From contig CANLSM010000001.1 in assembly GCA_947493745.1 (NCBI GenBank), positions 89,913 through 153,912 on the forward strand: DNA of 64,000 bases. Reading direction: 5' to 3'. Each line of letters opens with the position of its first letter. Positions within the stretch are counted from its first letter, which is position 1. The position numbers and the translations under genes are program-made. Below, in pieces: positions 49,524-63,816 of the stretch. This DNA comes from an uncultured Rhodobacteraceae bacterium (GTDB lineage: Bacteria; Pseudomonadota; Alphaproteobacteria; Rhodobacterales; Rhodobacteraceae). A model generated the notes under the pieces. The model saw only the letters and a list, made by a program, of their open reading frames with translations, ran no database searches and was not told where the DNA came from.

Positions 49524-50915
49524 ATGAACCGCTATCCCCGTGACATGATCGGCTATGGTCCCAATCCGCCTGATCCCAAATGGCCGGGTGGTGCACGCAT
49601 CGCACTCCAGATTGTGCTGAACTACGAGGAAGGCGGCGAGAACAACATCCTGCATGGGGATGCCGCCTCGGAGGCATTCCTGTCCGAGATCGTCGGGGCC
49701 GCCGCCTGGCCGGATCAGCGGCACTGGAACATGGAAAGCATCTATGAATACGGTGCCCGCGCCGGGTTCTGGCGACTGCATCGTCTTTTTACAGACCTTG
49801 GTATCCCGCTGACGGTTTATGGCGTCGCGACCGCACTTGCGCGATCCCCCGAACAGGTGGACGCCATGCTGAAGGCCGATTGGGAGATCGCCTCCCACGG
49901 GTTGAAATGGATCGAGTACAAGGACGCCACGATCGAAGATGAACGTACTGACATGCGCGAGGCAATCCGTCTGCATACCGAGGTCACCGGCGCGCGCCCA
50001 CGGGGATGGTACACGGGCCGCTGCTCGACCAATACGCTCAGTCTTGCGGCAGACGAGGGCGGATTTGCCTATGTCGCGGACAGCTACGCCGATGATCTGC
50101 CCTATTGGCACGGCTCCCAGCTTGTCATTCCCTACACGCTCGACGCCAATGACATGCGCTTTGCCACACCGCAGGGGTTCAATTCCGGTGATCAGTTCTT
50201 CAGCTATCTCAAGGACAGCTTCGACACGCTTTACGCCGAAGGCGGGCGCATGATGTCGGTGGGCCTGCACTGCCGTCTGATCGGTCGGCCCGGTCGCATT
50301 CAGGCACTGCAGCGGTTCCTTGAATACGCGCGTGGTCACTCGGAGGTCTGGTGGGCCCGCCGGATCGATATCGCCGATCACTGGCATGCAACCCACAAGC
50401 CTACCGAGGGCGCCCGACCATCAACGATGGACCGGACAGATTTCCTTTCCCGGTTCGGGGGGATCTATGAACACTCGCCATGGGTTGCCGAACGGGCTTT
50501 CGATCTGGAGCTCGGCCCCGCGCATGATACGGCGGCCGGACTTGCCAACGCGATGGCACGGGCTTTCAGATCGGCCTCCGAGGCAGAGCGTCTGGGAGTG
50601 CTTAAAGCGCATCCCGATCTGGCCGGAAAACTCGCCACAGCGAAGCGACTGACCGCCGAAAGCACGTCCGAGCAGGCCAGCGCCGGGCTCGACATGCTCA
50701 GCGATGCCGAGCGCACCGCCTTCACCGATCTCAACGGCCGTTACACGACAAAGTTCGGGTTTCCCTTCATCATTGCCGTGCGCGATCATGACAAGGCGGG
50801 CATCCTCCAGGCATTTCAGCACCGGATCGACAATGACCACGCAACCGAATTTGCCGAGGCCTGTCGGCAGGTGGAGCGCATTGCCGGGTTGCGTCTGAGG
50901 GAGGTCCTGCCATGA
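49524..50915 (+). CDS. puuE: fusion protein: PuuE-type allantoinase (polysaccharide deacetylase fold) + OHCU decarboxylase
   Basis: N-terminal half YPRDMIGYG...IALQIVLNYEEGGE is PuuE-like. C-terminal 160 aa FLSRFGGIYEHSPWVAERAF...LKAHPDLAGK...FGFPFIIAVRD is UraD-like. Confidence 0.8.
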   Translation: MNRYPRDMIGYGPNPPDPKWPGGARIALQIVLNYEEGGENNILHGDAASEAFLSEIVGAAAWPDQRHWNMESIYEYGARAGFWRLHRLFTDLGIPLTVYGVATALARSPEQVDAMLKADWEIASHGLKWIEYKDATIEDERTDMREAIRLHTEVTGARPRGWYTGRCSTNTLSLAADEGGFAYVADSYADDLPYWHGSQLVIPYTLDANDMRFATPQGFNSGDQFFSYLKDSFDTLYAEGGRMMSVGLHCRLIGRPGRIQALQRFLEYARGHSEVWWARRIDIADHWHATHKPTEGARPSTMDRTDFLSRFGGIYEHSPWVAERAFDLELGPAHDTAAGLANAMARAFRSASEAERLGVLKAHPDLAGKLATAKRLTAESTSEQASAGLDMLSDAERTAFTDLNGRYTTKFGFPFIIAVRDHDKAGILQAFQHRIDNDHATEFAEACRQVERIAGLRLREVLP

Positions 50916-51736
50916 GCATCTATGCCGGACCACCGGGCGGGTTGCCACCGCAGGACGCGCTGATGACGGACCGGGCGATCTTCACCGACGCCTACGCGGT
51001 GATCCCGCATGGTGTCATGCGCGATATCGTGACCAGTCTGCTGCCCGGATGGGACAGGGCGCGCGCCTGGATCCTTGCCCGCCCGTTGAGCGGGTTTGCC
51101 GAGACCTTTGCGCAGATGATCGTCGAACTCGAACCTGGTGGCGGCAGCGATCGACCGGAACCCGACAGCGGTGGAGAGGGCGTGTTCTTTGTCACCAGTG
51201 GGACATTGCGCGTCACGCTGGACGAAGTACCGCATGATCTGAGCCCCGGCGGCTTCGCCTATCTTCCGCCCGGCGCAAGATACTCGGTTCGAAACACAGG
51301 CGATGGACCGACGACGTTGCACTGGATCCGAAAGGCCTATGAACGGGTCGAGGGGCTCGACCCGCCCGACGCCCTGTTCTCCCATGACGCCGAGCTATCG
51401 CCCACCCCCATGCCGGATACCGACGGTCGCTGGGCCACGACGCGCTTCGTCGATCCCTGTGATCTGCGCCACGACATGCATGTCAACATCGTGACTTTCG
51501 AACCCGGCGCGTCGATCCCTTTCGCCGAGACACATGTGATGGAGCATGGGCTCTATGTACTTGAAGGCAAAGCCGTTTACCGCCTGAACGGTGACTGGGT
51601 CGAGGTTGGACCGGGTGATTTCATGTGGCTGCGCGCCTTTTGTCCGCAGGCCTGTTATGCGGGCGGACCGGGGCCGTTCCGCTACCTTCTCTACAAGGAT
51701 GTGAACCGCCATCCGGCCCTGAGACCCCCGAAATGA
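50912..51736 (+). CDS. allE: (S)-ureidoglycine aminohydrolase (bicupin)
   Basis: 274-aa bicupin located between puuE and allA. Confidence 0.7.
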   Translation: MSIYAGPPGGLPPQDALMTDRAIFTDAYAVIPHGVMRDIVTSLLPGWDRARAWILARPLSGFAETFAQMIVELEPGGGSDRPEPDSGGEGVFFVTSGTLRVTLDEVPHDLSPGGFAYLPPGARYSVRNTGDGPTTLHWIRKAYERVEGLDPPDALFSHDAELSPTPMPDTDGRWATTRFVDPCDLRHDMHVNIVTFEPGASIPFAETHVMEHGLYVLEGKAVYRLNGDWVEVGPGDFMWLRAFCPQACYAGGPGPFRYLLYKDVNRHPALRPPK

Positions 51737-52215
51737 CCCACCGGGTTGCCATTGAACCGCTGACAGAGGCGGAATTCGCGCCATTCGGAGATGTTCTGGA
51801 AATATCAGGCGACCCGACCGCAATGATCAACCAGGGCAACTGTGCCCGTCACAGCGATCTTGCAAAGATCGATATCCTTGAGGGTCGCGCCGGTATCAGT
51901 CTCTTTCACGGTCAGCCCTATGCACTGCCACTTGAGCTGCAGATGATGGAGCGGCACCCGCTTGGCTCTCAGGCCTTTCTGCCTATGTCACAGGATCCGT
52001 TTCTGGTGATCGTGGCGGAAGATGATGCAGGTACTCCGGCGCGCCCGAAAGCCTTCGTCACCCGCTCAGGTCAGGGCGTGAACTACCATCGGAACACATG
52101 GCATGGCGTGCTGACGCCCCTTGAGCGCGCCGGCCTCTTCGCAGTGATCGACCGGATCGGCGATGGCAGCAACCTCGAAGAACACTGGTTTGGAGAGCCA
52201 TACCTGATCGAATGA
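51733..52215 (+). CDS. allA: ureidoglycolate lyase
   Basis: 160 aa with FAPFGDVLE and NYHRNTWH motifs. Start trimmed to MTHRVAIEPL, which overlaps the allE stop. Confidence 0.85.
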   Translation: MTHRVAIEPLTEAEFAPFGDVLEISGDPTAMINQGNCARHSDLAKIDILEGRAGISLFHGQPYALPLELQMMERHPLGSQAFLPMSQDPFLVIVAEDDAGTPARPKAFVTRSGQGVNYHRNTWHGVLTPLERAGLFAVIDRIGDGSNLEEHWFGEPYLIE

Positions 52216-52278
52216 CCAACCATCAGGGCGCCACCCAAGAGCGTCGCTTATGTAACGAAGACAGAGAGGACCACAACC

Positions 52279-53676
52279 ATGGCAGACATGTCGTCTATCG
52301 GGACGCCGGAGCAGCTCCGCGATCCGAATTACACGCCCGCCCTCCACAAGGCGGTTCCACTGGGCATTCAGCACATCCTGGCGATGTTCGTTTCTAACGT
52401 AACCCCTGCGATCATCATTGCCGGGGCTGCCGGGTTTGGCTTTGGGTCGAACAGCCCCGACTTTCCGGAACTGATCTACATGATCCAGATGGCGATGTTC
52501 TTTGCCGGGGTCGCAACGCTTCTGCAAACCGTCACGATCGGGCCTGTGGGGGCAAAACTGCCGATTGTGCAGGGCACCAGCTTTGCCTTTCTGCCGGTGA
52601 TGATCCCGCTGGTTGCGGGCAAGGGCGTCGACGCGATGGCCGTGCTTTTCAGTGGCGTGATCATTGGCGGGTTCTTTCATGCCGCGCTCGGCCTGTTCAT
52701 TGGCAAGATCCGGTTTGCGTTGCCACCGCTCGTGACCGGGCTGGTGGTGCTGATGATCGGTCTTGCTCTGGTAAAGGTCGGCATCCAGTACGCCGCGGGC
52801 GGTGTTCCGGCCATCGGGACCGAGGAGTATGGCAGCCTCAAGAACTGGTCGGTTGCAGGTGTCGTGGTCGTGGTTACGCTGGGGCTGAAATTCTTCGCTC
52901 GCGGACTATTGTCAGTCTCGGCGGTGCTGCTTGGGCTAATCGCCGGATATGTGGTCGCCATGCTTCTGGGAATGGTCAGCTTCGGCAATGTCGGAAACGC
53001 CGCTGTTCTGCGGGTGCCCGGGTTCCTGCATTTCGGGTTCGAGTTCTCGGTGGCAGCCGTCATCGGCTTCTGCCTGATGGCGTTCATATCGGCAATCGAA
53101 ACCGTCGGCGACGTCTCGGGCATCACCAAAGGTGGTGCCGGGCGTGAAGCCACCGATGCGGAGATTTCCGGTGCGACCTATGCTGACGGGCTCGGCTCGG
53201 CGATTGCAGGGTTCTTCGGGTCACTGCCCAACACCTCGTTCTCCCAGAATGTGGGGCTGATTGCCATGACGGGTGTGATGAGCCGCCATGTGGTGACCAT
53301 CGGCGCGCTGTTCCTGATCGTCTGCGGCCTTGTGCCGAAGGTCGGGGCGGTGATCTCGACAATCCCGATCGAGGTCCTTGGCGGAGGCGTCATCGTCATG
53401 TTCGGCATGGTTTGCGCAGCTGGCGTATCGATGCTCGCGGATGTGCATTGGAACCGGCGCAATATGGTGATCTTCGCGGTTTCGCTGTCGTTGGGGCTCG
53501 GTCTGCAACTTGAACCGGGCGCCTTGCAGCATTTGCCCGACACGGCGCGTGTTCTGCTGACATCCGGGTTGCTTCCCGCCGCATTCCTGGCGATCGGCCT
53601 GAATTTGCTTTTGCCGGAGGACCTGGACAACGAACCGCTGGAAATCTCCGGCGGAATGTCCGGTCACAACGACTGA
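52279..53676 (+). CDS. NCS2-family nucleobase (xanthine/urate) permease
   Basis: 465-aa polytopic protein with an NCS2-like FSQNVGLIAMTGV motif. Confidence 0.85.
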   Translation: MADMSSIGTPEQLRDPNYTPALHKAVPLGIQHILAMFVSNVTPAIIIAGAAGFGFGSNSPDFPELIYMIQMAMFFAGVATLLQTVTIGPVGAKLPIVQGTSFAFLPVMIPLVAGKGVDAMAVLFSGVIIGGFFHAALGLFIGKIRFALPPLVTGLVVLMIGLALVKVGIQYAAGGVPAIGTEEYGSLKNWSVAGVVVVVTLGLKFFARGLLSVSAVLLGLIAGYVVAMLLGMVSFGNVGNAAVLRVPGFLHFGFEFSVAAVIGFCLMAFISAIETVGDVSGITKGGAGREATDAEISGATYADGLGSAIAGFFGSLPNTSFSQNVGLIAMTGVMSRHVVTIGALFLIVCGLVPKVGAVISTIPIEVLGGGVIVMFGMVCAAGVSMLADVHWNRRNMVIFAVSLSLGLGLQLEPGALQHLPDTARVLLTSGLLPAAFLAIGLNLLLPEDLDNEPLEISGGMSGHND

Positions 53677-53714: not shown

Positions 53715-55058
53715 TCAGCTTTCCGAAAAGGCACGGTCGGAGAGTGTTCTCAGCGGTTTGAGCATGTAGCTGAGGATGGATTTTCGACCGGTTCTGATGT
53801 CTGCGACCACAGTCATCCCCGGCAGAACCTCATGCAAGGGGTCGGGGGCACCGGAGGCAAGGGTAAAGCTCTCCTCCAGCGCGAGACGGACGCGAAAAAC
53901 GGTCGAGCCATCGGGCTTCACAAAGCTTGATGGCGACACCTGCTCCACGGTCGCATCGAGATCTCCGAAACGGGTGAAGTCATGTGACAGCACCTTGATG
54001 CTCGCGGCACTTCCCGGTCGGACTGTGCCGATCCGCTCGGCACTGATCTCGACCTCGGCGAAGACATCCTTGCCGAGCGGAACCAGTTCGGCCACAAGCG
54101 CGCCGGGCGGCACGACCTGATGAGCGTTCTGAAAGCCCAGCGCCAGAAGCACACCGTCAGAGGGCGCGCGGACAAAGGTGCGGGTTTTCGCGCCCTCAAG
54201 CTGCGTGATTGATTGCTCGACAATGCGCAAGGTCGAGACGGTTTCGGCCAGTTGCGCCGCCGCCTCCCGCCGGAAACCGGTCAGCAGTTCGGTTTCGCGA
54301 GCCGCGGATTGCTGAATTCTGGCGGCAAGAATTTCCTGCTCGCCGACAAGACCGGCGATCTCGCCTTGTTTCTGCAGAACTTCCCGGCGCACGGATTCTA
54401 TTCGAACCCGCGTCGTCGCGGCGCGCGCGCCCGGGGTATCAAGGCGTGCGGCATAGGCTGAAAGGATGGAAAAATCGGCCTTCAGACTGGCAAGGCGCTG
54501 TGCGGCACGGTCCTGTTCAGCCTCCAGTACCTCACGCTCCGCCCGCGCCAGTTCAATCTGCGCGGCAACATGCGCTGCCTGGGAGGCCTGTTCGGATACA
54601 AAACTCTCATCCTGAACGGTCAGCCCCGAAGGCAGGCCCGCCTCGAGATCCGCAAGAAAGGCACGTTGCCGCCGCAGGTCGCGAGAAAGATCGGCGGCCT
54701 GAACATGCAGTTTGGCAAGCTCAGCACGAATGCTTGCCTGGTCGAGTTCCATCAGCAAATCGCCCTCCCGGACGGTCTGTCCTTCCGAGACATGAACGCG
54801 CGCGACGACGCCGCCATCAAGATGGTCGATACGTTGAATCAAGCCAACCGGACGCACCGACCCGGGTCCGGAGACAATTTCATAGACGGGTGTGAATGAA
54901 GCCCAGACCAAGAAACCAAAAAAACCAAGGACGACGGCCCAGATGGTCATCCGCGGGATGCTTCCCGAATGCGCTTCCTCCAGCAGGCCGCTGTCAGCAA
55001 GCCCCGAACGGGCAGGCAAAGTGGCGCGCTCAGGCTTTCGTTTTGATGACAGGATCAT
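53715..55058 (-). CDS. HlyD-family type I secretion periplasmic adaptor
   Basis: One N-terminal TM helix, a lipoyl-like hairpin (VHVSEGQTVREGDLLMELD), a long coiled coil and a beta-barrel C-terminus. Confidence 0.85.
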   Translation of the reverse strand: MILSSKRKPERATLPARSGLADSGLLEEAHSGSIPRMTIWAVVLGFFGFLVWASFTPVYEIVSGPGSVRPVGLIQRIDHLDGGVVARVHVSEGQTVREGDLLMELDQASIRAELAKLHVQAADLSRDLRRQRAFLADLEAGLPSGLTVQDESFVSEQASQAAHVAAQIELARAEREVLEAEQDRAAQRLASLKADFSILSAYAARLDTPGARAATTRVRIESVRREVLQKQGEIAGLVGEQEILAARIQQSAARETELLTGFRREAAAQLAETVSTLRIVEQSITQLEGAKTRTFVRAPSDGVLLALGFQNAHQVVPPGALVAELVPLGKDVFAEVEISAERIGTVRPGSAASIKVLSHDFTRFGDLDATVEQVSPSSFVKPDGSTVFRVRLALEESFTLASGAPDPLHEVLPGMTVVADIRTGRKSILSYMLKPLRTLSDRAFSES

Positions 55059-57259
55059 GATTGTTGTCCCCTGGTTTCGGTTGGTGGCCCGAAGCTGACC
55101 ATCTGACCGGAATTCAGCGACAGAACCAGATCTGTCTGGCGCATATGGCTGGGTCGGTGGGTCACCATGAGGCAGGTCATCCGCCCCCTGCGCGCGCTCA
55201 GAGCCCCGATCATGGCCCGCTCATATTCCGGCGAGAGCCCCGAGGCGGGCTCGTCAAGCAGAAGCACCGTCGGTTTCGCCAGCAGGGCCCGGCCAAGACA
55301 GATCATCGACACGAAACCGGGGGTGAGATGCGATTGCACGGTGTGATCCAGCCGCGTTTCAAGCCCCTTGGGCAGGTTTTCGATGTCTCCGGTCAGATCG
55401 AGCGAAGTGATAAGGCCGTCGATCTCGTCCCGGCTCGCATGGGGTGCCGCAATCGTCAGATTCTGCAGCAGCGTCCCATGAAACAGCATCGGCGACTGAC
55501 TGACATAGCCGATATTCTGCGAAAGAACTGACCTTGGCAGCTGATCGAGATTGATCCCGCCGAGGCTGACCGTGCCCGATACTGGATGCAGCAGACCGCT
55601 CATCAGTCGCAGCAGCGTCGTCTTGCCCGATCCCGACGGGCCGGTCACCGCAATGAAGGCCCCCTCCTCGATGGAGAAGGAAATGTTCGACAGGGTCGGC
55701 ATGGCGGATCGTGGATAGCGGAAAAAAACACCCTCGAAGCCGGGGCTGGCAGAGATCTGCTGCCAGACCTGGACATTGCCGGTCCTGGTGGTCCCCTCCA
55801 GCGCCATCAACCCGTCGATCTGGCGAAAGAGGTTCTGGATGTCAGGCAAACTCGCCGCTGCAACCAGCGCCTGCTGGATCGGTGCCAGAAGGCGCCACAG
55901 AAGGATGGTCGTGGCAATCAGGACACCGGTCTGCAGGCTCCCCTGCATCACAAGCCAGGCGCCCAGTACCAGAACCGCACCGGCACAGACCGGTGTCAGC
56001 AGAGTTGAGAGGGTCCGCAGATTTCGTGACTGGGTCTCGACCTTCAGACGTCGCTCGACACTTCGCCTGATGCTGGTCGTCAACCGCTCGGTCCAGATCG
56101 GACCGATACCGGAGCGTGCGATCTGCATCCGCTGAGCCAATGTCTCGAGAAGAAGTTTGGAATGCTGGGTCCGTGCCACCGAGTACCGCATGGACGCCGT
56201 CCTCAGCTTGGGGAAGATGAAGGCGCTCGCTGTTGCGAACGTGACTATGATCGCGATCAGGAGAAGCCCGATCATCGGGCTGATGACCGTGACGGTGGCG
56301 AGCAGCATCAGGGCGAATGGAAGTTCAAGCAAGACCGCCACGACAGGTCCGTTGAAGATATCGCGGACCGTCTCGAACTGTTTTAGACGGCTGATCTGCT
56401 CGCTGACAGACGCGTTTGCGATCATTTCGATCCTGAGAGCCATCAGTTTGGAAAAGAGCGCCGAGCCCAGAAGATACTCAGTCCGGCCCGAGATGCGCCC
56501 GACCAGACCGGCCCTCAGACGCCGGAGAAAGAGGTCCATCGCGATAAGTCCGGCCAACCCGATCATGAGTGCAGCCAGCGTGTCATAGGCCTTCGCGGGG
56601 ATGACCTTGTCGAAAATCAGAATGATGAAGAGCGAGGCCAGAATGACCAGCGTATTGGACAGGAAAATCAGCGCCAGAAGGTTCCGCACCTCCGGCGTGA
56701 AACGCTGCAGGGTCTGTTTTGTCCAGCTTTCGCGTGCCCCTGCGGATCCGGCATCGTCATGTTCCTGAAAGACGATACACTCATAGAAAACAGTCGGTTC
56801 CAGTGTTTGTGGCAACCTCGTTTCGACGTTGAAAAAGCCGGGCTGCCCATCACTGTTGGGCAACAACATTCCTGCGGGCGTGATCACGAGCGTCGTGGGC
56901 GAGGCGGCGTCGAGATCTTTGCCACGCGCCTGAACAGAGCGGCTCTCAAAGCCGAGCCGGTGCATCGTTGCCCGCATGTCGGTAAGTGTAAAAGCCTCGG
57001 GGTAGTGCGGCAGGGCACCGACAAAGCTGCGCATGTCAACTGCCCAATCGAACCGCCCGAGCAGGTCCTGCAAGGCATTCACGACAGGGCCGTAGAGAGG
57101 CGTACCGCAGGCCCGCCCGCTGCTCAGGCATTCGGCCAGCGTATCAAGCGCGAACCGTCTGCTCTGCGCATCCATCTGGCCAAGGCCGATCTTCACGTCA
57201 TGGGCCATAAACCTGCCCTGAGCGCGAATGCTCCCCGGTTCTGCGGCGGGCGCGCTCAT
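55055..57259 (-). CDS. ABC exporter half-transporter with an N-terminal extension of about 170 aa (C39-like position); T1SS/bacteriocin-exporter type
   Basis: TMD plus NBD. Walker A GPSGSGKTT, Q-loop VSQSP, Walker B LLLDEP and H-loop VTHRP are present. The signature position reads LTPGF instead of LSGGQ. Confidence 0.8.
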   Translation of the reverse strand: MSAPAAEPGSIRAQGRFMAHDVKIGLGQMDAQSRRFALDTLAECLSSGRACGTPLYGPVVNALQDLLGRFDWAVDMRSFVGALPHYPEAFTLTDMRATMHRLGFESRSVQARGKDLDAASPTTLVITPAGMLLPNSDGQPGFFNVETRLPQTLEPTVFYECIVFQEHDDAGSAGARESWTKQTLQRFTPEVRNLLALIFLSNTLVILASLFIILIFDKVIPAKAYDTLAALMIGLAGLIAMDLFLRRLRAGLVGRISGRTEYLLGSALFSKLMALRIEMIANASVSEQISRLKQFETVRDIFNGPVVAVLLELPFALMLLATVTVISPMIGLLLIAIIVTFATASAFIFPKLRTASMRYSVARTQHSKLLLETLAQRMQIARSGIGPIWTERLTTSIRRSVERRLKVETQSRNLRTLSTLLTPVCAGAVLVLGAWLVMQGSLQTGVLIATTILLWRLLAPIQQALVAAASLPDIQNLFRQIDGLMALEGTTRTGNVQVWQQISASPGFEGVFFRYPRSAMPTLSNISFSIEEGAFIAVTGPSGSGKTTLLRLMSGLLHPVSGTVSLGGINLDQLPRSVLSQNIGYVSQSPMLFHGTLLQNLTIAAPHASRDEIDGLITSLDLTGDIENLPKGLETRLDHTVQSHLTPGFVSMICLGRALLAKPTVLLLDEPASGLSPEYERAMIGALSARRGRMTCLMVTHRPSHMRQTDLVLSLNSGQMVSFGPPTETRGQQS

Positions 57260-58929
57260 CCTGCCAGCACCATCTGCTCTTGCCTGAGAACCAGTGGATG
57301 TATGGTTTCGGTCAGTTTTCCCCGGTTGAAATGGATCTCCCGGTTGGCGAGCATCTGATAGGATGGACGATGACTGACCATGATCAGGATCAGGTCGGGC
57401 ATGCGTTCGCGCAACAGTTCCAGCAAACGATGGTCGGTGTCGAAATCCAGACTGGTATTGGCTTCGTCAAACAGGATGACCTGAGGCTGGCCGACCAACC
57501 CTGCGATCATCAGGATGGCATCCGAGATCGACTTTGGCAGCACACTGGCCTTGCTGGCCGAGACCCGCAGCCCGAGCCCCTCGGGGATACGGGCAATGAA
57601 GCGGTCGATCCCGAACCGACTTGTCAGATCCAGCGCCTCATCAAGATGCGCAACGCCGGAAAATCCTGTCAGATTGTCCAGCAGCGTCCCCTCAAGCAGG
57701 TGGTCATTGCTTGTCAGCATCCGGACCTGACGCTGGCGTTCGCCAAAGTCGAAAACCTCCGCGGGCTGTCCATTGAACAGCACGCCTCCGTCCTGAGCCG
57801 CGATCTGCCCGGCGATCAGACGCAAAAGTGAAGAACGACCCGCACCTTCAGGGCCACGCAGCAGCACGCAATCACCTCGTCTGAAGGTGAAATTCAGATC
57901 ACTCAGCCTTGGTGGGGCACGCGGATCGGGCTGCCATGTGAGATGGCGAAGCTCCAGCTTGTCGATCCGCGGCAGACACTCCGTACCGCATTCGATCAGG
58001 GACCGGTCAAAGAGCGAGGTCAGCTCGGCCTCGTGTCTTTTGGTGTCTTCTTCGCCCACCAGCAACGCCTCAAGCCGCAGCACCGGCTGGATGATCCGGC
58101 CGGTCAGCAACACCGTCGCCGCCAATTCGCCCATGGTGATGCTTTCCTGAATGACCAGGATCGAGCCTACACTGGCCGAAACGACTGGTCCCAACAGGCC
58201 GATTGCCCCGATGATGCCCTGGATGAGTTGGTTGCGTTCGGCAAGTTGTGCATTGATCGACGCACTCGACGACAGCAGCCGTTCATATCTGCGTTCCAGA
58301 TTGGCCTCGATCGCCAGACCTTTCACCGTATCGATGCCGGACAAGGTCTCGATCAGGAAGGATTGCCGCCGCTCATCCGCCTGCTGCCGCGCGAAATTCA
58401 GTGTCAGCACCTCCCGGCGCATCAGGCGCACGATGATGAACATCGCCGTGACCAGAGACAGGATGACCAGGGCAATGGGGAGTGAAATGAGCGCCATCAG
58501 CCCCAGAAACATGATGATGAACGGCAGATCGAGAAGCGCCGCGGATGCATCGCCCGTGTAGTAGGAACGCAGCCGTTCGATATGCCGGAGCTTGTTGTAG
58601 AGAACGCCGGGTGCATCGCTGACACTGATGGTCGATCGCCCGTCCAGCAGCCTCCGAACCGTGGCGGCATGGGTGCTGACCTCAAATCTCGCCCCGAACG
58701 TCGCCAGCAGCACCGATCTTGAGAACCGCAGGGCCGCATCCGCGAGAAGCGCCACGCCGAGGCCAATGGCCAATGCGATCAGGGTTGCGGTGCCGCTGTT
58801 CGGTATGATCCGGTCATAGACCTGGATCATCACGATGGGCAAAGCCAGGCTGAGCAAATTGGACGTCAGGGAGGCGACAAGGATATGCGGATTCCGCCGC
58901 AAGGCCCGCAATTCGCCAAAAACCGGCAT
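57256..58929 (-). CDS. ABC exporter half-transporter with a degenerate NBD (no N-terminal extension)
   Basis: Walker A GPEGAGRSS (Lys replaced by Arg), no Q-loop Gln (MLTSND), signature position VLPKS, Walker B ILFDEA, H-loop VSHRP. Start trimmed from TTG 58950 to ATG 58929, which is preceded by GGAGCGG. Confidence 0.75.
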   Translation of the reverse strand: MPVFGELRALRRNPHILVASLTSNLLSLALPIVMIQVYDRIIPNSGTATLIALAIGLGVALLADAALRFSRSVLLATFGARFEVSTHAATVRRLLDGRSTISVSDAPGVLYNKLRHIERLRSYYTGDASAALLDLPFIIMFLGLMALISLPIALVILSLVTAMFIIVRLMRREVLTLNFARQQADERRQSFLIETLSGIDTVKGLAIEANLERRYERLLSSSASINAQLAERNQLIQGIIGAIGLLGPVVSASVGSILVIQESITMGELAATVLLTGRIIQPVLRLEALLVGEEDTKRHEAELTSLFDRSLIECGTECLPRIDKLELRHLTWQPDPRAPPRLSDLNFTFRRGDCVLLRGPEGAGRSSLLRLIAGQIAAQDGGVLFNGQPAEVFDFGERQRQVRMLTSNDHLLEGTLLDNLTGFSGVAHLDEALDLTSRFGIDRFIARIPEGLGLRVSASKASVLPKSISDAILMIAGLVGQPQVILFDEANTSLDFDTDHRLLELLRERMPDLILIMVSHRPSYQMLANREIHFNRGKLTETIHPLVLRQEQMVLAG

Positions 58930-59204
58930 TGTCCGCTCCAAACCGCTCAAAATTGATCCTCGTGGCCCGGCTTAGTCCTCAATGGCGAAGATAGCGTTAA
59001 TCCAAGGTCAGCGGGTTCCCGTGCGGCAACGACTATTGGAAACACCGACCCGGGATCATACCTCCCCCTGGCGGATATGCCCCAAGCCGGGGGCTGTTGT
59101 CGCAATGAAACGGTGCGAGGCGAAAATGACAGAGGTTTTGACCATTCCGCCTGTGGAAGGCATAAAGGCTGGACGCATACCGCTTTGTTGAGGAACCGCT
59201 CAGC

Positions 59205-60473
59205 GTGATCATTCCCCATCATGTGACCGAAATGCTGGCCCGTGTCCGTGCCCGCATCATGCGCCCCGGCGGCGAGCAATCGCTGGACCCGAAGCCCGAG
59301 GGGGCGCACAGTTATCGCCCGGTTCGCACGGCCAGCGAAAAGAGCATCGCGCGGTATTGGGATCTTCTGATGAAGGGAGCAGCGTCAGCGACCGATCAGG
59401 AAGCGCTTGCCGACCCGACAACACTTGCGGATGCCGCAAGCTACAGCGCCAACATCGAAAACATGATCGGAACCGTCAAGGTACCGGTCGGCGTCGTCGG
59501 CCCGCTTCGGGTGAACGGCGTCTATGCCAATGGCGATTTTACGGTGCCGCTGGCCACCACAGAGGCCGCCCTCGTCGCGTCCTATGCACGCGGCGCGCAT
59601 ATCGCCTCGCGCGCTGGCGGGATCAGCACGGCGGTACTTTATGAGGGTGTGCTGAGAACCCCCGCCTTTGTCTTCGAGACACTGATGCAGGCCGGGCAGT
59701 TCGTGGACTGGGTTGTGTCCCATATCGACGGGCTCAAGTCCGAGGCCGAGAAGACCACCCGCCACGGCAAGCTTGTCTCGGTGGAGCCTGTGATCGACAC
59801 CAATGTCGTCTTCCTGCTTTGCCGTTATACCACCGGAGACGCTTCGGGGCAGAACATGGTCACGATCGCAACCGATGCGTTCTGCCGTCATGCCGCCGAG
59901 ACCTGTCCGGTTCCCATAAAGCGCTGGTATGTCGAAGGGAATTTCTCGGGCGACAAGAAAGCCTCGGCACTGGGCATGCTGACCGGGCGCGGTCGGAAGG
60001 TCAGCGCATCGGTCGTCCTGCCGGATGAACTGATCGGAAAGCTGCTCGGCACAACTGCCGAGGCAATGCTGGACTACGGGCGGGTCGCCAATCTGGGCGC
60101 GCTCTTCTCCGGTCAGATGGGAGCGCAGGCGCATTATGCGAACGCTCTGGCGGCGCTTTACATCGCCACTGGTCAGGATGCGGCCTGCGTTGCGGAAAGT
60201 GCTGTCGGGTTCACCCGGATGGAGCCGCATGAGAACGGGTTGTTCTGTTCGGTCACGATGCCCAATATCCTTGTCGGCTCGGTCGGGGGAGGCACGGGTT
60301 TGCCCAGCCAGATGGCGGGCCTCAACATCATGGGGCTGAAAGGTGCCGGCAAGGGAGCCGCATTGGCCGAAGTCACGGCAGCGCTCTGCCTATGCGGCGA
60401 GATATCCATCGTGGCGGCCCTCTCGGCCGGGGATTTCGTCCGGGCGCATGAGAGCCTCGCCCGGCACCGATGA
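59205..60473 (+). CDS. hydroxymethylglutaryl-CoA reductase family protein (class-I-like soluble catalytic domain)
   Basis: ENMIGTVKVPVGVVGPL, TTEAALVAS, DASGQNM, GNFSGDKKASA, GQDAACVAES, GSVGGGTGL and a C-terminal FVRAHESL, colinear with HMGR catalytic motifs. The start is uncertain (GTG 59205, ATG 59232 or ATG 59259). Confidence 0.8.
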   Translation: MIIPHHVTEMLARVRARIMRPGGEQSLDPKPEGAHSYRPVRTASEKSIARYWDLLMKGAASATDQEALADPTTLADAASYSANIENMIGTVKVPVGVVGPLRVNGVYANGDFTVPLATTEAALVASYARGAHIASRAGGISTAVLYEGVLRTPAFVFETLMQAGQFVDWVVSHIDGLKSEAEKTTRHGKLVSVEPVIDTNVVFLLCRYTTGDASGQNMVTIATDAFCRHAAETCPVPIKRWYVEGNFSGDKKASALGMLTGRGRKVSASVVLPDELIGKLLGTTAEAMLDYGRVANLGALFSGQMGAQAHYANALAALYIATGQDAACVAESAVGFTRMEPHENGLFCSVTMPNILVGSVGGGTGLPSQMAGLNIMGLKGAGKGAALAEVTAALCLCGEISIVAALSAGDFVRAHESLARHR

Positions 60474-61375
60474 CCCAAAGCCTCGCCTCACGCCTCTGGA
60501 TCTACCAGAAGGAGCGGTTTCCGCTGATCAAAACCCTGCCCCTGCTTGCAGTCTTCTCGGCGGCCAGCATCAATGTCTCGGCCATGATGGCCGGACGGGA
60601 TCTACCGGGCTGGGGGACATATGCAGCAGGTCTCGCACTGGCGCTGATCCTCTTTTTCCAGATGCGGGTCTGCGACGAGAACAAGGACCTTGAGGACGAC
60701 ACCCGTTATCGCCCCGAACGCCCGATCCCGCGCGGGCTCGTCAGCCTGAGGCTGATCACCGGACTGGGGCTGCTCACCGTGCCGCTGGCCGTGCTGGTTG
60801 CATGGAGCACTTCTGTTCTGTGGCTTCTGGCCATTGTGTGGATCTGGCTGGCCGCAATGACGTTCGAGTTCGGCGCACCGACCTGGCTGAAGGCACGACC
60901 GGTGCTTTACCTGCTCAGTCACATGGCGATCATGCCGTTGATCGACCTGCTGCTCACCGGGCTGGAATGGACCGGGACGGGTCCCGCACCGGACCTCTGG
61001 CTCTTTCTTGCGCTCTCGTTTGTCAACGGTTGCGTTCTGGAACTGGGCCGCAAGATCTGGGCACCGACTGCTGAACGCGAAGGGGTCGAGACCTATTCCG
61101 GGCTCTGGGGGCCACGGCGGGCGACGCAGATCTGGGTGGGACTGCTGCTGCTCGCCTTCGGCTTGTTGCTCGGCGTCGGGCTGAGCCTCGGCACGGTCTG
61201 GCCCATGGCGATTGCCGGTGGGCTGGGGCTTGCCGCATGTCTCATGGTCGCTGGCCGATATCTGCGAAACCCCGATGAGAAGGCACAGGCGCAGGTCGAT
61301 ATGATGGCTGGTTTCTGGGTCCTCATTTGCTACGGCTCTGCCGGATTTCTGTCACTTCTTGCCGGAGGTCCCTGA
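60470..61375 (+). CDS. UbiA-superfamily-like integral membrane transferase (divergent)
   Basis: About 8-9 TM segments. Asp-rich loop CDENKDLEDDTRYRPERPIPRG after TM2. The second acidic loop is Glu-based (ELGRKIWAPTAEREGVETYSGLWG). The ATG overlaps the HMGR stop (ATGA). Confidence 0.65.
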   Translation: MTQSLASRLWIYQKERFPLIKTLPLLAVFSAASINVSAMMAGRDLPGWGTYAAGLALALILFFQMRVCDENKDLEDDTRYRPERPIPRGLVSLRLITGLGLLTVPLAVLVAWSTSVLWLLAIVWIWLAAMTFEFGAPTWLKARPVLYLLSHMAIMPLIDLLLTGLEWTGTGPAPDLWLFLALSFVNGCVLELGRKIWAPTAEREGVETYSGLWGPRRATQIWVGLLLLAFGLLLGVGLSLGTVWPMAIAGGLGLAACLMVAGRYLRNPDEKAQAQVDMMAGFWVLICYGSAGFLSLLAGGP

Positions 61376-63816
61376 TGGATCCTGTCATTTCCTCAGTCGC
61401 GGCCAGAGTTGTTGACGAGGTCGGAGGCAAGGCAACCTCGCTGAATGCCCTGATCCAGGCCGGATTCCGCGCCCCTGATTTCTTTGTCATCCGGGCAGAG
61501 GCGATAAGGGACGGCCAACCCTCCTCTACCCTTGAAGATGCTCTGCCCGATGCACTCCGCGCGCTTGGAGACGGGCCATTTGCCGTGCGCTCGTCCGGGC
61601 GGGCCGAGGACGGTGCCGAGCACAGCCATGCGGGGCAGTTCGAGACCTTGCTGAACGTCGCCACGGGCGAGGTTCTGGCAGCGGCCGTAAAGGTCTGGAA
61701 GTCCGGCTTCTCGGAAACGGTCGCCACCTATCGCAACGTCAAAACCGGTGGGACGGCAGAGGCCCCGGCCATCATCGTGCAAAGGATGATCCCCGCGGAC
61801 ACCGCAGGCATCGCCTTCTCGGCGGACCCCGTGACGGGCCTGCGCGATCGGGTGGTGATCTCGGCAATCTCGGGGCTCGGGGAACAACTGGTTTCGGGCG
61901 AGGCGGATGGTGAGGACTGGGTCGTCGGATCCGACAACACTCCGCTAAAGATGCCGGACCAGCCGGAGGTTCTGAGCGCTGATCAGGCAGCCGACATCAC
62001 CGATCTCGCACGACGGGCCGAGGAAGCGTTCGGCAGACCTCAGGACATCGAATGGGCCATCGCGGATGGCATCCTCTACATCCTTCAGTCCCGCCCCATC
62101 ACCACCGAACTGCGGCCCCACGCCGTGCCCGACGATGCGCTCATCGTGCTCGACAACTCGAACATCGTGGAAAGCTATCCCGGACTGGTCTCGCCGCTCA
62201 CATATTCGTTCGCGGCTTACGTCTATGCCCGCGTCTACCGGGCCTTTGTGCGGCTGCTCGGCGTTCGCGAGCCTGCAATAGCTGCCCATGCGGCAGTCTT
62301 CGACAACATGCTCGCGCGGGTGGATGGCCGGGTCTACTACAATCTTGGCAACTGGTATCGGGCGCTGGCGCTGCTACCGGGCTTCTCGCTCAACCGCGCC
62401 TATATGGAGACGATGATGGGCGTCTCCGAACCGTTGCCTGCGGAACTCACCGACAGCATCGGCGCGGCTCCGGCAAGGGGGTTCGGCAGGGTCATGGAAT
62501 GGCTGAAGGTGCTGCCGGTCGGCCTTGGTCTGATCTGGCAGGCCAGCATATTACCGCGGACCTGCCGCCGGTTCTATGCGCGGCTCGGGCGGGCCCTGGA
62601 TCAGGCCCCGGACCTCAAGGCCGCCAACCTGACCACACTGGCTGATGAATATCGCAAGATCGAGGCTGAACTGCTGGATCAATGGGACGCACCGCTGATC
62701 AACGACTTTCTCTGCATGATCGGTTTCGGCGCATCACGGAACATGCTGGAGAAATGGCTGGGAGAGGACGGGCTGCATCTGCACAACGATCTGATGATCG
62801 GACAAGGGGATATCGTCTCTGCCGAACCTGCGCAGCGCATCGCCAAGATGGGCGCGATGGTGCGGGTTGCGGGGATCGCGGACCGGGTCGAGGCGGAGGG
62901 ACGTCGCGCGCTACGCGATCTGCCGACCGTTGAAGCGGAGGTCAACGCCTATATCGCCAAATTCGGGGACCGCTGCACACAGGAACTGAAGCTGGAGAGC
63001 ATCCCGCTGGATCAGGATGACACTGCACTGATTGCAGCCATTGCCGCCAGCGGCCGGCGGGAGGCGGCCCCCGTCATAGAGCGCCGCGACCCCGACTGGT
63101 CGACGCTTTTTGCCAGCAAACCGGTGCGCCGGATCATTGCGCGTGGCTTCACCAACTGGGCGAAGGCAAGGGTCCGCGACCGGGAGAACCTGCGGTTCGA
63201 GCGGACACGGATCTTCGGCCATGCGCGACGGGTCTTTCTGGCGATGGGGCGGGAGCTTACGGCACTTGGCCATCTCGACGCAGATCGCGACATCTTCCTG
63301 CTGACGGTCGAGGAGGTATTGGGGGCCGTCGAGGGCAACGCCCTGTCACAGGATCTCAAGGCTTTGGTCGCGTTGCGCCGAGCGGAGGAGGCAGCCTCCG
63401 CCACACGCGCCGATCCGCCCGAGCGCATCCTGGTTCGGGGTGCGGCGGTCAACCTGCCGATTGAGCATCAGTCATCGCAGGTGGAACTGAGCACCGCACA
63501 AAGCCAGACGGCAACGGGTTGCTCGGCCGGACAGGTGACCGCGACAGCCCGTGTGATTACCGACCCGCGCACCCAGACATTGACGCCTGGTGAAATCCTG
63601 ATCGCCACCAACACCGATCCGGGCTGGATTGCCGTGTTTTCCAATGCGTCGGCCATCGTGGTAGAACGCGGCTCGCTGCTGTCACACTCCGCCATTGTCG
63701 CGCGTGAGCTGGGCATCCCTTGTGTCGTCGGGCTGAAAGACGCGACGCGCTGGATCACGTCGGGTGAGCAGATCGAGGTCAACGGCAAGACCGGAGAAGT
63801 CAGGAAACTCGAATGA
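61375..63816 (+). CDS. PEP-synthase-family ATP-grasp / swivel-phosphohistidine dikinase lacking the PEP/pyruvate TIM-barrel domain (rifampicin-phosphotransferase-like architecture)
   Basis: N-terminal PPDK_N-like domain (VGGKATSLNAL...FAVRSSGRAEDG...SHAGQFETLLNV...IAFSADPVTG...QDIEWAI). C-terminal mobile domain (ILIATNTDPGWIAVFSNASAIVVERGSLLSHSAIVARELGIPCVVG). The protein ends about 35 aa later. The ATG overlaps the UbiA-like stop (TGATG). Confidence 0.75.
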   Translation: MDPVISSVAARVVDEVGGKATSLNALIQAGFRAPDFFVIRAEAIRDGQPSSTLEDALPDALRALGDGPFAVRSSGRAEDGAEHSHAGQFETLLNVATGEVLAAAVKVWKSGFSETVATYRNVKTGGTAEAPAIIVQRMIPADTAGIAFSADPVTGLRDRVVISAISGLGEQLVSGEADGEDWVVGSDNTPLKMPDQPEVLSADQAADITDLARRAEEAFGRPQDIEWAIADGILYILQSRPITTELRPHAVPDDALIVLDNSNIVESYPGLVSPLTYSFAAYVYARVYRAFVRLLGVREPAIAAHAAVFDNMLARVDGRVYYNLGNWYRALALLPGFSLNRAYMETMMGVSEPLPAELTDSIGAAPARGFGRVMEWLKVLPVGLGLIWQASILPRTCRRFYARLGRALDQAPDLKAANLTTLADEYRKIEAELLDQWDAPLINDFLCMIGFGASRNMLEKWLGEDGLHLHNDLMIGQGDIVSAEPAQRIAKMGAMVRVAGIADRVEAEGRRALRDLPTVEAEVNAYIAKFGDRCTQELKLESIPLDQDDTALIAAIAASGRREAAPVIERRDPDWSTLFASKPVRRIIARGFTNWAKARVRDRENLRFERTRIFGHARRVFLAMGRELTALGHLDADRDIFLLTVEEVLGAVEGNALSQDLKALVALRRAEEAASATRADPPERILVRGAAVNLPIEHQSSQVELSTAQSQTATGCSAGQVTATARVITDPRTQTLTPGEILIATNTDPGWIAVFSNASAIVVERGSLLSHSAIVARELGIPCVVGLKDATRWITSGEQIEVNGKTGEVRKLE

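Follow-up and report, generated by a model that had tools for sequence, protein, structure and literature searches.

In textbook type I secretion, one homodimeric ATP-binding cassette (ABC) protein works together with an adaptor and TolC. The 64,000-nucleotide stretch of DNA studied here (the window; contig CANLSM010000001.1, positions 89,913 to 153,912, from an uncultured Rhodobacteraceae bacterium) contains a three-gene cassette that resembles such an exporter but encodes two different ABC half-transporters, ABC1 and ABC2, followed by a HlyD-family periplasmic adaptor. Neither ABC protein has the canonical LSGGQ signature motif, and no substrate or outer-membrane gene accompanies the cassette. 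The locus raises the question of what kind of pump this is, whether two such unusual ABC proteins can form a working motor, and what they would export. In our judgment, the cassette probably encodes a tripartite type I system in which ABC1 and ABC2 form an obligate heterodimer with one docking domain and one working ATP site, on ABC2, and which exports giant RTX/cadherin proteins tagged with a characteristic C-terminal module.

Gene Organization and Nucleotide-Site Motifs

All three genes of the cassette lie on the minus strand. Their coordinates give 4-base stop/start overlaps at both junctions, 57256–57259 (ABC1/ABC2) and 55055–55058 (ABC2/HlyD), and the Pfam families agree with the coupled order of ABC, N-terminally extended ABC, and HlyD that a preliminary description, made from the sequence alone, had proposed. 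ABC1 (57256–58950; 564 amino acids when read from a TTG codon) is a half-transporter with a transmembrane domain (TMD), a nucleotide-binding domain (NBD), and a degenerate ATPase. It has no N-terminal accessory domain, because its alignment to HlyB begins only at HlyB residue 157, where the TMD starts. An alternative ATG at 58929, preceded at 6 nucleotides by GGAG, gives a protein of 557 residues and is likely the true start. ABC2 (55055–57259; 734 amino acids) is a half-transporter that carries an N-terminal C39-like domain and keeps its catalytic residues. The third gene (53715–55058; 447 amino acids) encodes the HlyD-family periplasmic adaptor of type I secretion.

Both ABC proteins match ABC_membrane (PF00664) and ABC_tran (PF00005), and the adaptor matches HlyD_3. 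The adaptor also scores 257.6 bits with the curated type_I_hlyD model TIGR01843, above its cut-off of 208.65. ABC1 and ABC2, about 25% identical, are paralogues. Among curated models, both score highest with TIGR03375 (LssB-type type I permease/ATPase), but at 298.4 bits for ABC1 and 357.5 bits for ABC2 they reach only about half of the cut-off of 693.1 bits. The HlyB model TIGR01846 aligns with residues 61–724 of ABC2, and the best solved full-length matches of the two proteins include HlyB (7sgr and 8dck), a PrtD-like transporter (5l22), and PCAT1. No curated model covers ABC1 or ABC2.

The motifs of the nucleotide sites were read from HMMER alignments to HlyB and P-glycoprotein. In ABC1, the Walker A motif is GPEGAGRSS (57829–57855, minus strand), in which Arg replaces Lys, and Ser replaces the Q-loop Gln; the Walker B motif FDE and the H-loop His are intact. 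In ABC2, the Walker A motif GPSGSGKTT, the Q-loop Gln, the Walker B motif LDE, and the H-loop His are all intact, and the D-loop reads SGLS (55232–55243, minus strand) rather than SALD, with loss of the Asp. The signature positions, assigned by alignment and a spacing check, are occupied by LPKSI in ABC1 (57526–57540, minus strand) and by LTPGF in ABC2 (55313–55327, minus strand). For the motifs that the preliminary description gave, these readings agree with it except at the ABC1 signature, which it had rightly called non-canonical but had given as VLPKS, one residue off from the LPKSI that aligns with LSGGQ.

Two independent HMMER alignments, together with the spacing to the Walker B Asp, rule out a misregistered C-loop as the explanation for the missing signatures. 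In HlyB, ABC1, and ABC2 alike, the first Leu of the signature precedes this Asp by 24 residues, and neither SGG nor GGQ occurs elsewhere in the NBD of ABC1 or ABC2. The register of the signature is therefore correct.

Distribution and Conservation of the Family

A search of 5.8 billion proteins with ABC2 returned about 40 clusters at E < 1e-80, the best match being 44% identical. A scan of one genome per species gave 80 loci, which together with loci fetched by protein identity make up a set of 83 non-redundant loci. The scan loci belong to Rhodobacterales, Hyphomicrobiales, and Rhodospirillales and, in the gammaproteobacteria, to many marine or symbiotic members such as Amphritea, Methylomarinum, Sedimenticola, and Thiodiazotropha. 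The ABC1-ABC2-HlyD order is found on a single strand in 71 of the 83 related alpha- and gammaproteobacterial loci, with ATGA or GTGA overlaps at 41 of 78 ABC1/ABC2 junctions and 48 of 75 ABC2/HlyD junctions. Every ABC1-type open reading frame (ORF) gives its higher score with ABC1, and every ABC2-type ORF with ABC2. The profile built for the N-terminal domain of ABC2 recovered 344 clusters (50% identity) at E ≤ 1e-10 among 1.84 billion representatives. We take this count as the safer estimate of family size, because one of the two patterns used in the genome scan could match other ABC exporters; the 550 relatives returned by that scan were not used for this purpose.

The motifs were tabulated for 75 ABC1 and 83 ABC2 sequences. 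On the ABC2 side, the catalytic apparatus is well kept: the Walker A Lys is present in 83 of 83 sequences, the catalytic Glu in 80, the H-loop His in 76, and the Q-loop Gln in 71. LSGGQ is found in none of the 83, and the consensus at this position is [LM]-P-P-G-F. In the ABC2 alignment every family member lacks LSGGQ, which is present in three outgroup type I ABC proteins (P0056, P0062, and P0070). The D-loop Asp is kept in 11 of the 23 ABC2 proteins of the window's clade and is replaced by Ser in 7, including the window copy, whose close relatives have lost it too.

On the ABC1 side, the D-loop Asp is invariant (75/75), and LSGGQ is likewise absent (0/75). Among the 53 ABC1 sequences from outside the window's clade, the Walker A Lys is kept in 51, and the Walker B Glu is replaced by Asp or Asn in 40; the signature follows the pattern L-[SP]-x-G-V, as in LSEGV and LPEGV, and its fourth residue is Gly in 50. 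Within the clade, the Walker B Asp-Glu pair is kept, the Walker A Lys is lost in 14 of 22 sequences (Arg in 8), and the Q-loop Gln is usually lost as well. The signature there reads L-P-x-S-[VI], with L in 20, P in 20, S in 16, and V or I in 19 of the 22 sequences. The absence of LSGGQ and the degeneracy of ABC1 are thus family traits and not local decay. Judged from the alignments, the LPKSI of the window is a derived state, yet one conserved within its clade. The preliminary description had found it puzzling that neither signature is canonical, since heterodimers with one degenerate site normally keep one consensus motif. The observation is true for the window, and the puzzle is largely resolved by LSEGV and LPEGV in the deeper-branching ABC1 proteins.

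A sister subclade (P0006, P0007, P0014, and P0021, with loci L005, 9731–11962, and L009) shows a more extreme form. The ABC2 Walker B motif reads F-D-A-P in three of these four proteins, P0021 of L009 being the one that keeps the D-E pair, and the H-loop His is absent in all four. In L005 and L009, the partner ABC1 has no recognizable Walker A motif. From these motifs, no canonical hydrolytic site appears to be left in this subclade. Its cassette lies directly downstream of a protein of about 2,500 amino acids of the RTX/cadherin type that bears the C-terminal module described below.

Cargo Proteins in Related Loci

In four of the five loci read for neighboring genes, the cassette adjoins genes for proteins with HemolysinCabind and Cadherin domains (Pfam) of 1,353 to more than 4,250 amino acids. 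These four belong to Yoonia sp. SS1-5, a Paracoccaceae genome, a Hyphomicrobiales genome, and a metagenomic contig, and one of them also contains a TolC-type gene. No cargo gene is adjacent to the cassette of Rhodovulum sp. P5 (L002). More broadly, among those of the 83 loci whose upstream sequence extends for at least 7 kb, most contain a giant or RTX-rich ORF. This ORF runs in the same direction as the cassette in the window's clade, where it ends 100–200 bp before ABC1; in the gammaproteobacterial clade, it is often divergent. A TolC-like gene is adjacent in only 6 of the 83 loci and is therefore usually unlinked.

The C-termini of the cargo proteins share a module of about 75 amino acids in both the alpha- and the gammaproteobacterial clades. 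It can be written approximately as GGWTD-I-L ... GWT--LD-G ... L-LS-DA-G-I-FDDG ... F-x-G-[IV]-E-x-[IL]-x-W, the last segment standing at the extreme end of the protein. Examples of giant ORFs that carry it are L008 258–8150, L001 3–8201, and L026 2294–8041 (minus strand). A custom hidden Markov model (HMM) of the module finds it in 27 of the 83 loci; 5 of these are independent of the 22 from which the model was built. The module corresponds to no Pfam or NCBIfam model, and when its profile was searched against 5.8 billion proteins, all matches were short fragments bearing no name other than "hypothetical" or "RTX toxin-like".

The window itself contains none of these partners. No open frame with two or more GGxGxD repeats was found in the six frames of the window, tblastn of 12 related giant cargo proteins against the 64 kb gave no match, the cargo-module HMM found nothing better than E = 2.9, and tblastn of six TolC-like proteins gave no match either. 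The absence of substrate and outer-membrane genes, already noted in the preliminary description, thus stands, and the window cassette is a locally orphan copy. We propose that the cargo gene of the source organism would lie outside the 64-kb window or have been lost. Working with the HlyD adaptor and a TolC-type channel from an unlinked gene, the pump would export very large calcium-binding surface proteins of the RTX/cadherin type, and the cargo would be recognized through the conserved C-terminal module of about 75 amino acids. Both the identity of the cargo in the source genome and the use of TolC are steps that we infer here.

An orphan copy may also be a dying one. The cassette could be a relic that has lost its cargo gene, with the ABC1 motifs degenerating under relaxed selection in this genome. 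Its position would suit such a history, as it is wedged between unrelated purine-catabolism and hydroxymethylglutaryl-CoA reductase (HMGR) genes with neither a cargo nor a TolC gene within 64 kb, and so would the Lys-to-Arg change and the missing Q-loop Gln of ABC1. Genuine decay of ABC1 is seen in one relative, the methane-oxidizing endosymbiont of Gigantopelta aegis, where an 84-amino-acid ABC1 remnant (L075, 10010–10264) lies upstream of intact ABC2 and HlyD genes; this remnant may reflect decay of the degenerate subunit in a reduced genome. In the window, however, the three ORFs are intact and the 4-base overlaps are kept. The odd residues are common to the clade: Arg in Walker A is seen in 8 members, the SGLS D-loop in 7, and the residues of the LP-x-S-[VI] signature in 16 to 20 of 22. 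Since the clade shares them, these residues of ABC1 and ABC2 were inherited and are not recent damage. Moreover, the cassettes of Rhodovulum sp. P5 and L014 also have no adjacent cargo gene and are intact. We therefore regard a relic as improbable and return to the working exporter in considering how its two ABC proteins would cooperate.

Probable Pairing of ABC1 and ABC2 and the Proposed ATP Sites

The significance of the two-gene arrangement is illustrated by natural single-chain fusions. Four proteins (P0143, P0153, P0164, and P0209) of 1,301–1,327 amino acids consist of an ABC1-type TMD and NBD, a linker, a C39-like domain at residues 593–762, and an ABC2-type TMD and NBD. There are at least four such fusion clusters, which differ from each other by more than 50%, in addition to Insolitispirillum peregrinum (L084, 8144–12058), where the same fusion forms a single ORF of 1,304 amino acids. 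Because the half-transporters are fused in gene order, the fusions are strong, if indirect, evidence that ABC1 and ABC2 work as one pair. In P0143, the second NBD has the Walker A motif GRNGAGRST, with Lys replaced by Arg, so that the degeneracy of this fusion lies on the ABC2 side.

In an ABC dimer, each ATP site brings together the P-loop side of one subunit with the signature and D-loop of its partner. Given this composite architecture, the complementary loss of motifs fits a heterodimer. Two unlike, linked half-transporters with complementary degeneracy, as found across the 75 ABC1 and 83 ABC2 sequences, are what characterizes a heterodimeric exporter with a degenerate site. Taken together, the linked genes, the asymmetric motifs, and the fusion proteins indicate that ABC1 and ABC2 most probably form a heterodimer, as the preliminary description had suspected from the paired genes.

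We propose that the ABC engine is an obligate asymmetric ABC1/ABC2 heterodimer. ABC2 would supply the sole C39-like cargo-docking domain and the sole competent P-loop, catalytic Glu, and H-loop His, and ABC1 would be the degenerate partner without a docking domain. The non-hydrolytic site would be formed by the P-loop of ABC1, with its Walker A Arg and no Q-loop Gln, facing the LTPGF motif and the Asp-less D-loop of ABC2. The working site on ABC2 would be completed by the remodeled but conserved C-loop LPKSI of ABC1 and by its invariant D-loop Asp. The physical pairing of the two proteins and catalysis at a single site are both steps that we infer from sequence.

A different division of labor can be envisaged, in which ABC1 and ABC2 each form homodimers that occupy different places in an assembly like that of HlyB, with three ABC dimers and six HlyD. 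The ABC dimers of the HlyB/HlyD complex have unequal roles. The solved structures of this complex (7sgr and 8dck) hold several ABC dimers, so that labor could be divided among them. Against such an arrangement, the fusions place one ABC1 and one ABC2 in each chain, as is normal in pseudo-heterodimeric full transporters, and the degeneracy is complementary in the way expected of shared composite sites, D-loops included. An ABC2 homodimer would, in addition, have the most degenerate element, [LM]PPGF, in both of its sites. Separate homodimers are accordingly even less probable in our estimate than a relic, and the heterodimer remains the preferred arrangement.

The N-Terminal Domain of ABC2

The asymmetry of the proposed pair extends to its N-terminus, where only ABC2 carries an additional domain (approximately residues 55–170; 56750–57097, minus strand). 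An AlphaFold2 model of this domain, built from 25 family sequences, has a mean pLDDT of 85.5. The top Foldseek matches in the PDB, at probability 1.0, are 3b79 (the C39-like domain of a Vibrio parahaemolyticus toxin exporter), 3zua (the C39-like domain of HlyB), and 7sgr (HlyB in the HlyB/D complex), followed by true C39 peptidase domains. The TM-scores, normalized by target length, are 0.55–0.57 against the isolated domains 3b79 and 3zua. Thus, according to the model, the domain folds like the non-proteolytic C39-like domain of HlyB.

The identification comes from fold comparison only, as a sequence search of the PDB with the domain profile gave nothing beyond chance hits, and the Pfam C39 model matches weakly (5 of 25 members, best E 5.6e-4). 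Invariance is limited to L67, W72, and H85, of which H85 lies inside a family-specific motif, ALPH[FY]PE (56996–57016, minus strand). No conserved Cys is present in the alignment of the domain, and we therefore read it as a docking domain and not as a protease. Two ABC2 homologues, P0141 (1,038 amino acids) and P0173 (1,062 amino acids), have a further 340–370 residues before the C39-like domain. This extension is rich in Pro, Lys, and Ala and of low complexity in P0141; in P0173, it begins with a hydrophobic, signal-like segment.

Neighboring Genes

The cassette is closely flanked on both sides. At one end, the convergent gene of a xanthine/uracil permease stops 38 bp from the HlyD gene; at the other, the HMGR gene is divergent from ABC1 across a 254-bp intergenic region. 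A scan of the cassette with promoter consensus sequences gave no promoter-like site, and terminator-like sites were at chance level.

On the HMGR side, positions 59205–63816 (plus strand) hold three seemingly coupled genes, with overlaps at 60470–60473 and 61327–61375. They encode HMGR (PF00368, 360 bits), a UbiA-family membrane prenyltransferase-like protein, and an 829-amino-acid protein with PPDK_N and PEP-utilizing mobile domains. The combination is unusual, and no other mevalonate-pathway genes are in view. The preliminary description had suggested that the exporter serves this operon. An NHLP/bacteriocin-type pump that exports the operon's product, or a peptide modified by it, has the divergent arrangement across 254 bp as its sole support and is very improbable, because homologues of any of the three operon genes occur in 0 of the 83 related loci, the cassette is conserved there without the operon and beside genes for giant RTX proteins, the NHLM models score far below their cut-offs, an N-terminal domain without conserved Cys could not cleave a double-glycine leader, and the flanks of the cassette are too tight for a precursor-peptide gene. 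Conservation without the operon and next to a protein substrate is the outcome that the preliminary description had itself named as refuting its proposal, and the link to the operon is thereby refuted.

The permease gene belongs to a purine/ureide catabolism block at 49524–53676 (plus strand), whose other products are a polysaccharide-deacetylase-type allantoinase fused to OHCU decarboxylase, a bicupin, and a ureidoglycolate lyase. When the cassette (53715–58950) was compared with the 72,556 plasmid records of PLSDB, the sole nucleotide matches were of 33–41 bases at query positions 1882–1922. They fall on seven Ensifer replicons of about 1.7–1.8 Mb, in regions without a listed gene, and probably represent chance or a short conserved element. 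The adjoining 24 kb match a mixture of Rhizobiales and Rhodobacterales replicons, mostly at 60–80% identity and at about 75% in the hits of best coverage, so that PLSDB holds no close match.

Assessment and Significance

Several points weigh against the heterodimeric RTX/cadherin exporter proposed here. Neither a cargo gene nor a TolC-like gene lies within the window, so that the function of this copy is a prediction, and the window copy has no close relative (best 44% identity) by which purifying selection could be gauged. The signature Ser and second Gly normally contact the γ-phosphate. The putative catalytic site uses LPKSI, which has neither, and hydrolysis at this site is an assumption. 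Heterodimerization is deduced from linkage, motif asymmetry, and fusions and not from a physical or structural test. Finally, one subclade has ABC2 proteins without the catalytic Glu and His, and a model with one active site misses this part of the family.

The cassette belongs to a widespread family of type I pumps that is apparently undescribed; in the literature on two-ABC or heterodimeric type I systems, of which subscription journals were sparsely covered, only MARTX was found. A more far-reaching formulation would describe an undescribed, widespread class of type I secretion systems with an obligate pseudo-symmetric heterodimer, a single docking domain, a single nucleotide site whose C-loop is rebuilt and lacks the usual Ser and Gly, and a dedicated recognition module on megadalton-scale adhesins. 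In its extreme form, in the sister subclade, proteins of more than 2,500 residues would be exported without canonical ATP hydrolysis, by ATP binding alone or by another energy source. We offer this formulation tentatively and consider it, taken as a whole, rather unlikely.

We know of no settled account of how an unfolded chain thousands of residues long is handled by a symmetric motor, or of why cargo is engaged by some subunits in the HlyB assembly but not by others. The family can be regarded as a natural experiment in enforced asymmetry, with one docking domain, one competent ATP site, and a scaffold-like partner. The natural single-chain fusions and the recognizable cargo tag make it a tractable system. 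Questions that it opens to study are the number of ATP sites and docking domains required for secretion and the extent to which the signature can drift in a working site. The C-terminal module would also permit giant adhesins of marine and symbiotic proteobacteria to be matched to their exporters by sequence. The practical message for the window is more modest: it holds a locally orphan member of the family, unconnected with the neighboring HMGR operon.

Comparison with Known Systems

Among known systems, the cassette shares several features with HlyB/HlyD/TolC. An ABC protein with a C39-like domain of the HlyB type corresponds to "group 2" of Kanonenberg et al. 2013, as that work is cited in PMC4316617. 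In the cassette, such a domain without conserved Cys is found on ABC2 only, the adaptor exceeds the TIGR01843 cut-off, the cassette's relatives have RTX cargo with a C-terminal targeting region, and the outer-membrane gene is usually unlinked. The cassette differs in having two unlike ABC proteins instead of one homodimer, with the C39-like domain on one subunit. Its ABC proteins lack LSGGQ, one nucleotide site is degenerate, and the cargo module is the family's own.

In Vibrio, MARTX secretion through RtxB/RtxD/RtxE follows the type I route and depends on two ABC proteins, for which a heterodimer has been proposed (Boardman and Satchell 2004, as summarized in PMC3034196 and PMC4316617). The two ABC proteins, the proposed heterodimer, and the very large cargo recall the cassette, and the preliminary description had pointed to this kinship. 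A comparison with rtxB, rtxD, and rtxE of V. vulnificus pR99 does not bear it out. The gene order is B-D-E and not ABC1-ABC2-HlyD, and both RtxB and RtxE of pR99 have an N-terminal domain, GxxGxGKST, LSGGQ, and LDE. They are 23–27% identical to ABC1 and ABC2 without orthologous pairing, both window ABC proteins matching RtxB better than RtxE. The similarity to rtxBDE is thus generic, and a specific relationship was rejected.

The two ABC genes plus a HlyD-family gene are also shared with NHLP/Nif11-type export loci, the other kinship suggested at the outset. The curated models place the window proteins 4 to 7 times below the respective cut-offs: the ABC proteins reach 129.3 and 225.6 bits with TIGR03796 (cut-off 853.3) and 148.2 and 189.5 bits with TIGR03797 (cut-off 709.4), and the adaptor reaches 42.6 bits with TIGR03794 (cut-off 156.2). 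The cassette has neither a catalytic Cys nor a precursor peptide, and the cargo in its relatives measures 1,000 to more than 4,000 amino acids. Identity as an NHLM exporter or a C39 peptidase was rejected on these scores, together with the weak Pfam C39 matches in 5 of 25 N-terminal domains.

With regard to the motor itself, the comparison is with TM287/288, TmrAB, and TAP1/2, which are heterodimeric ABC exporters with one degenerate ATP site (PMC5216877 and PMC8277102). As in these transporters, the half-transporter genes are adjacent, one site is degenerate through the Walker A or B motif of one subunit and the signature of the other, and one subunit, here ABC2, keeps all the catalytic residues. 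The known heterodimers retain a canonical LSGGQ in the consensus site, whereas the corresponding position is LSEGV or LPEGV in the deep branches of the present family and LPKSI in the window. In addition, they are stand-alone exporters of drugs or peptides, in contrast to a pump that would use the same asymmetric arrangement, with a C39-like domain on one subunit, for tripartite protein secretion.

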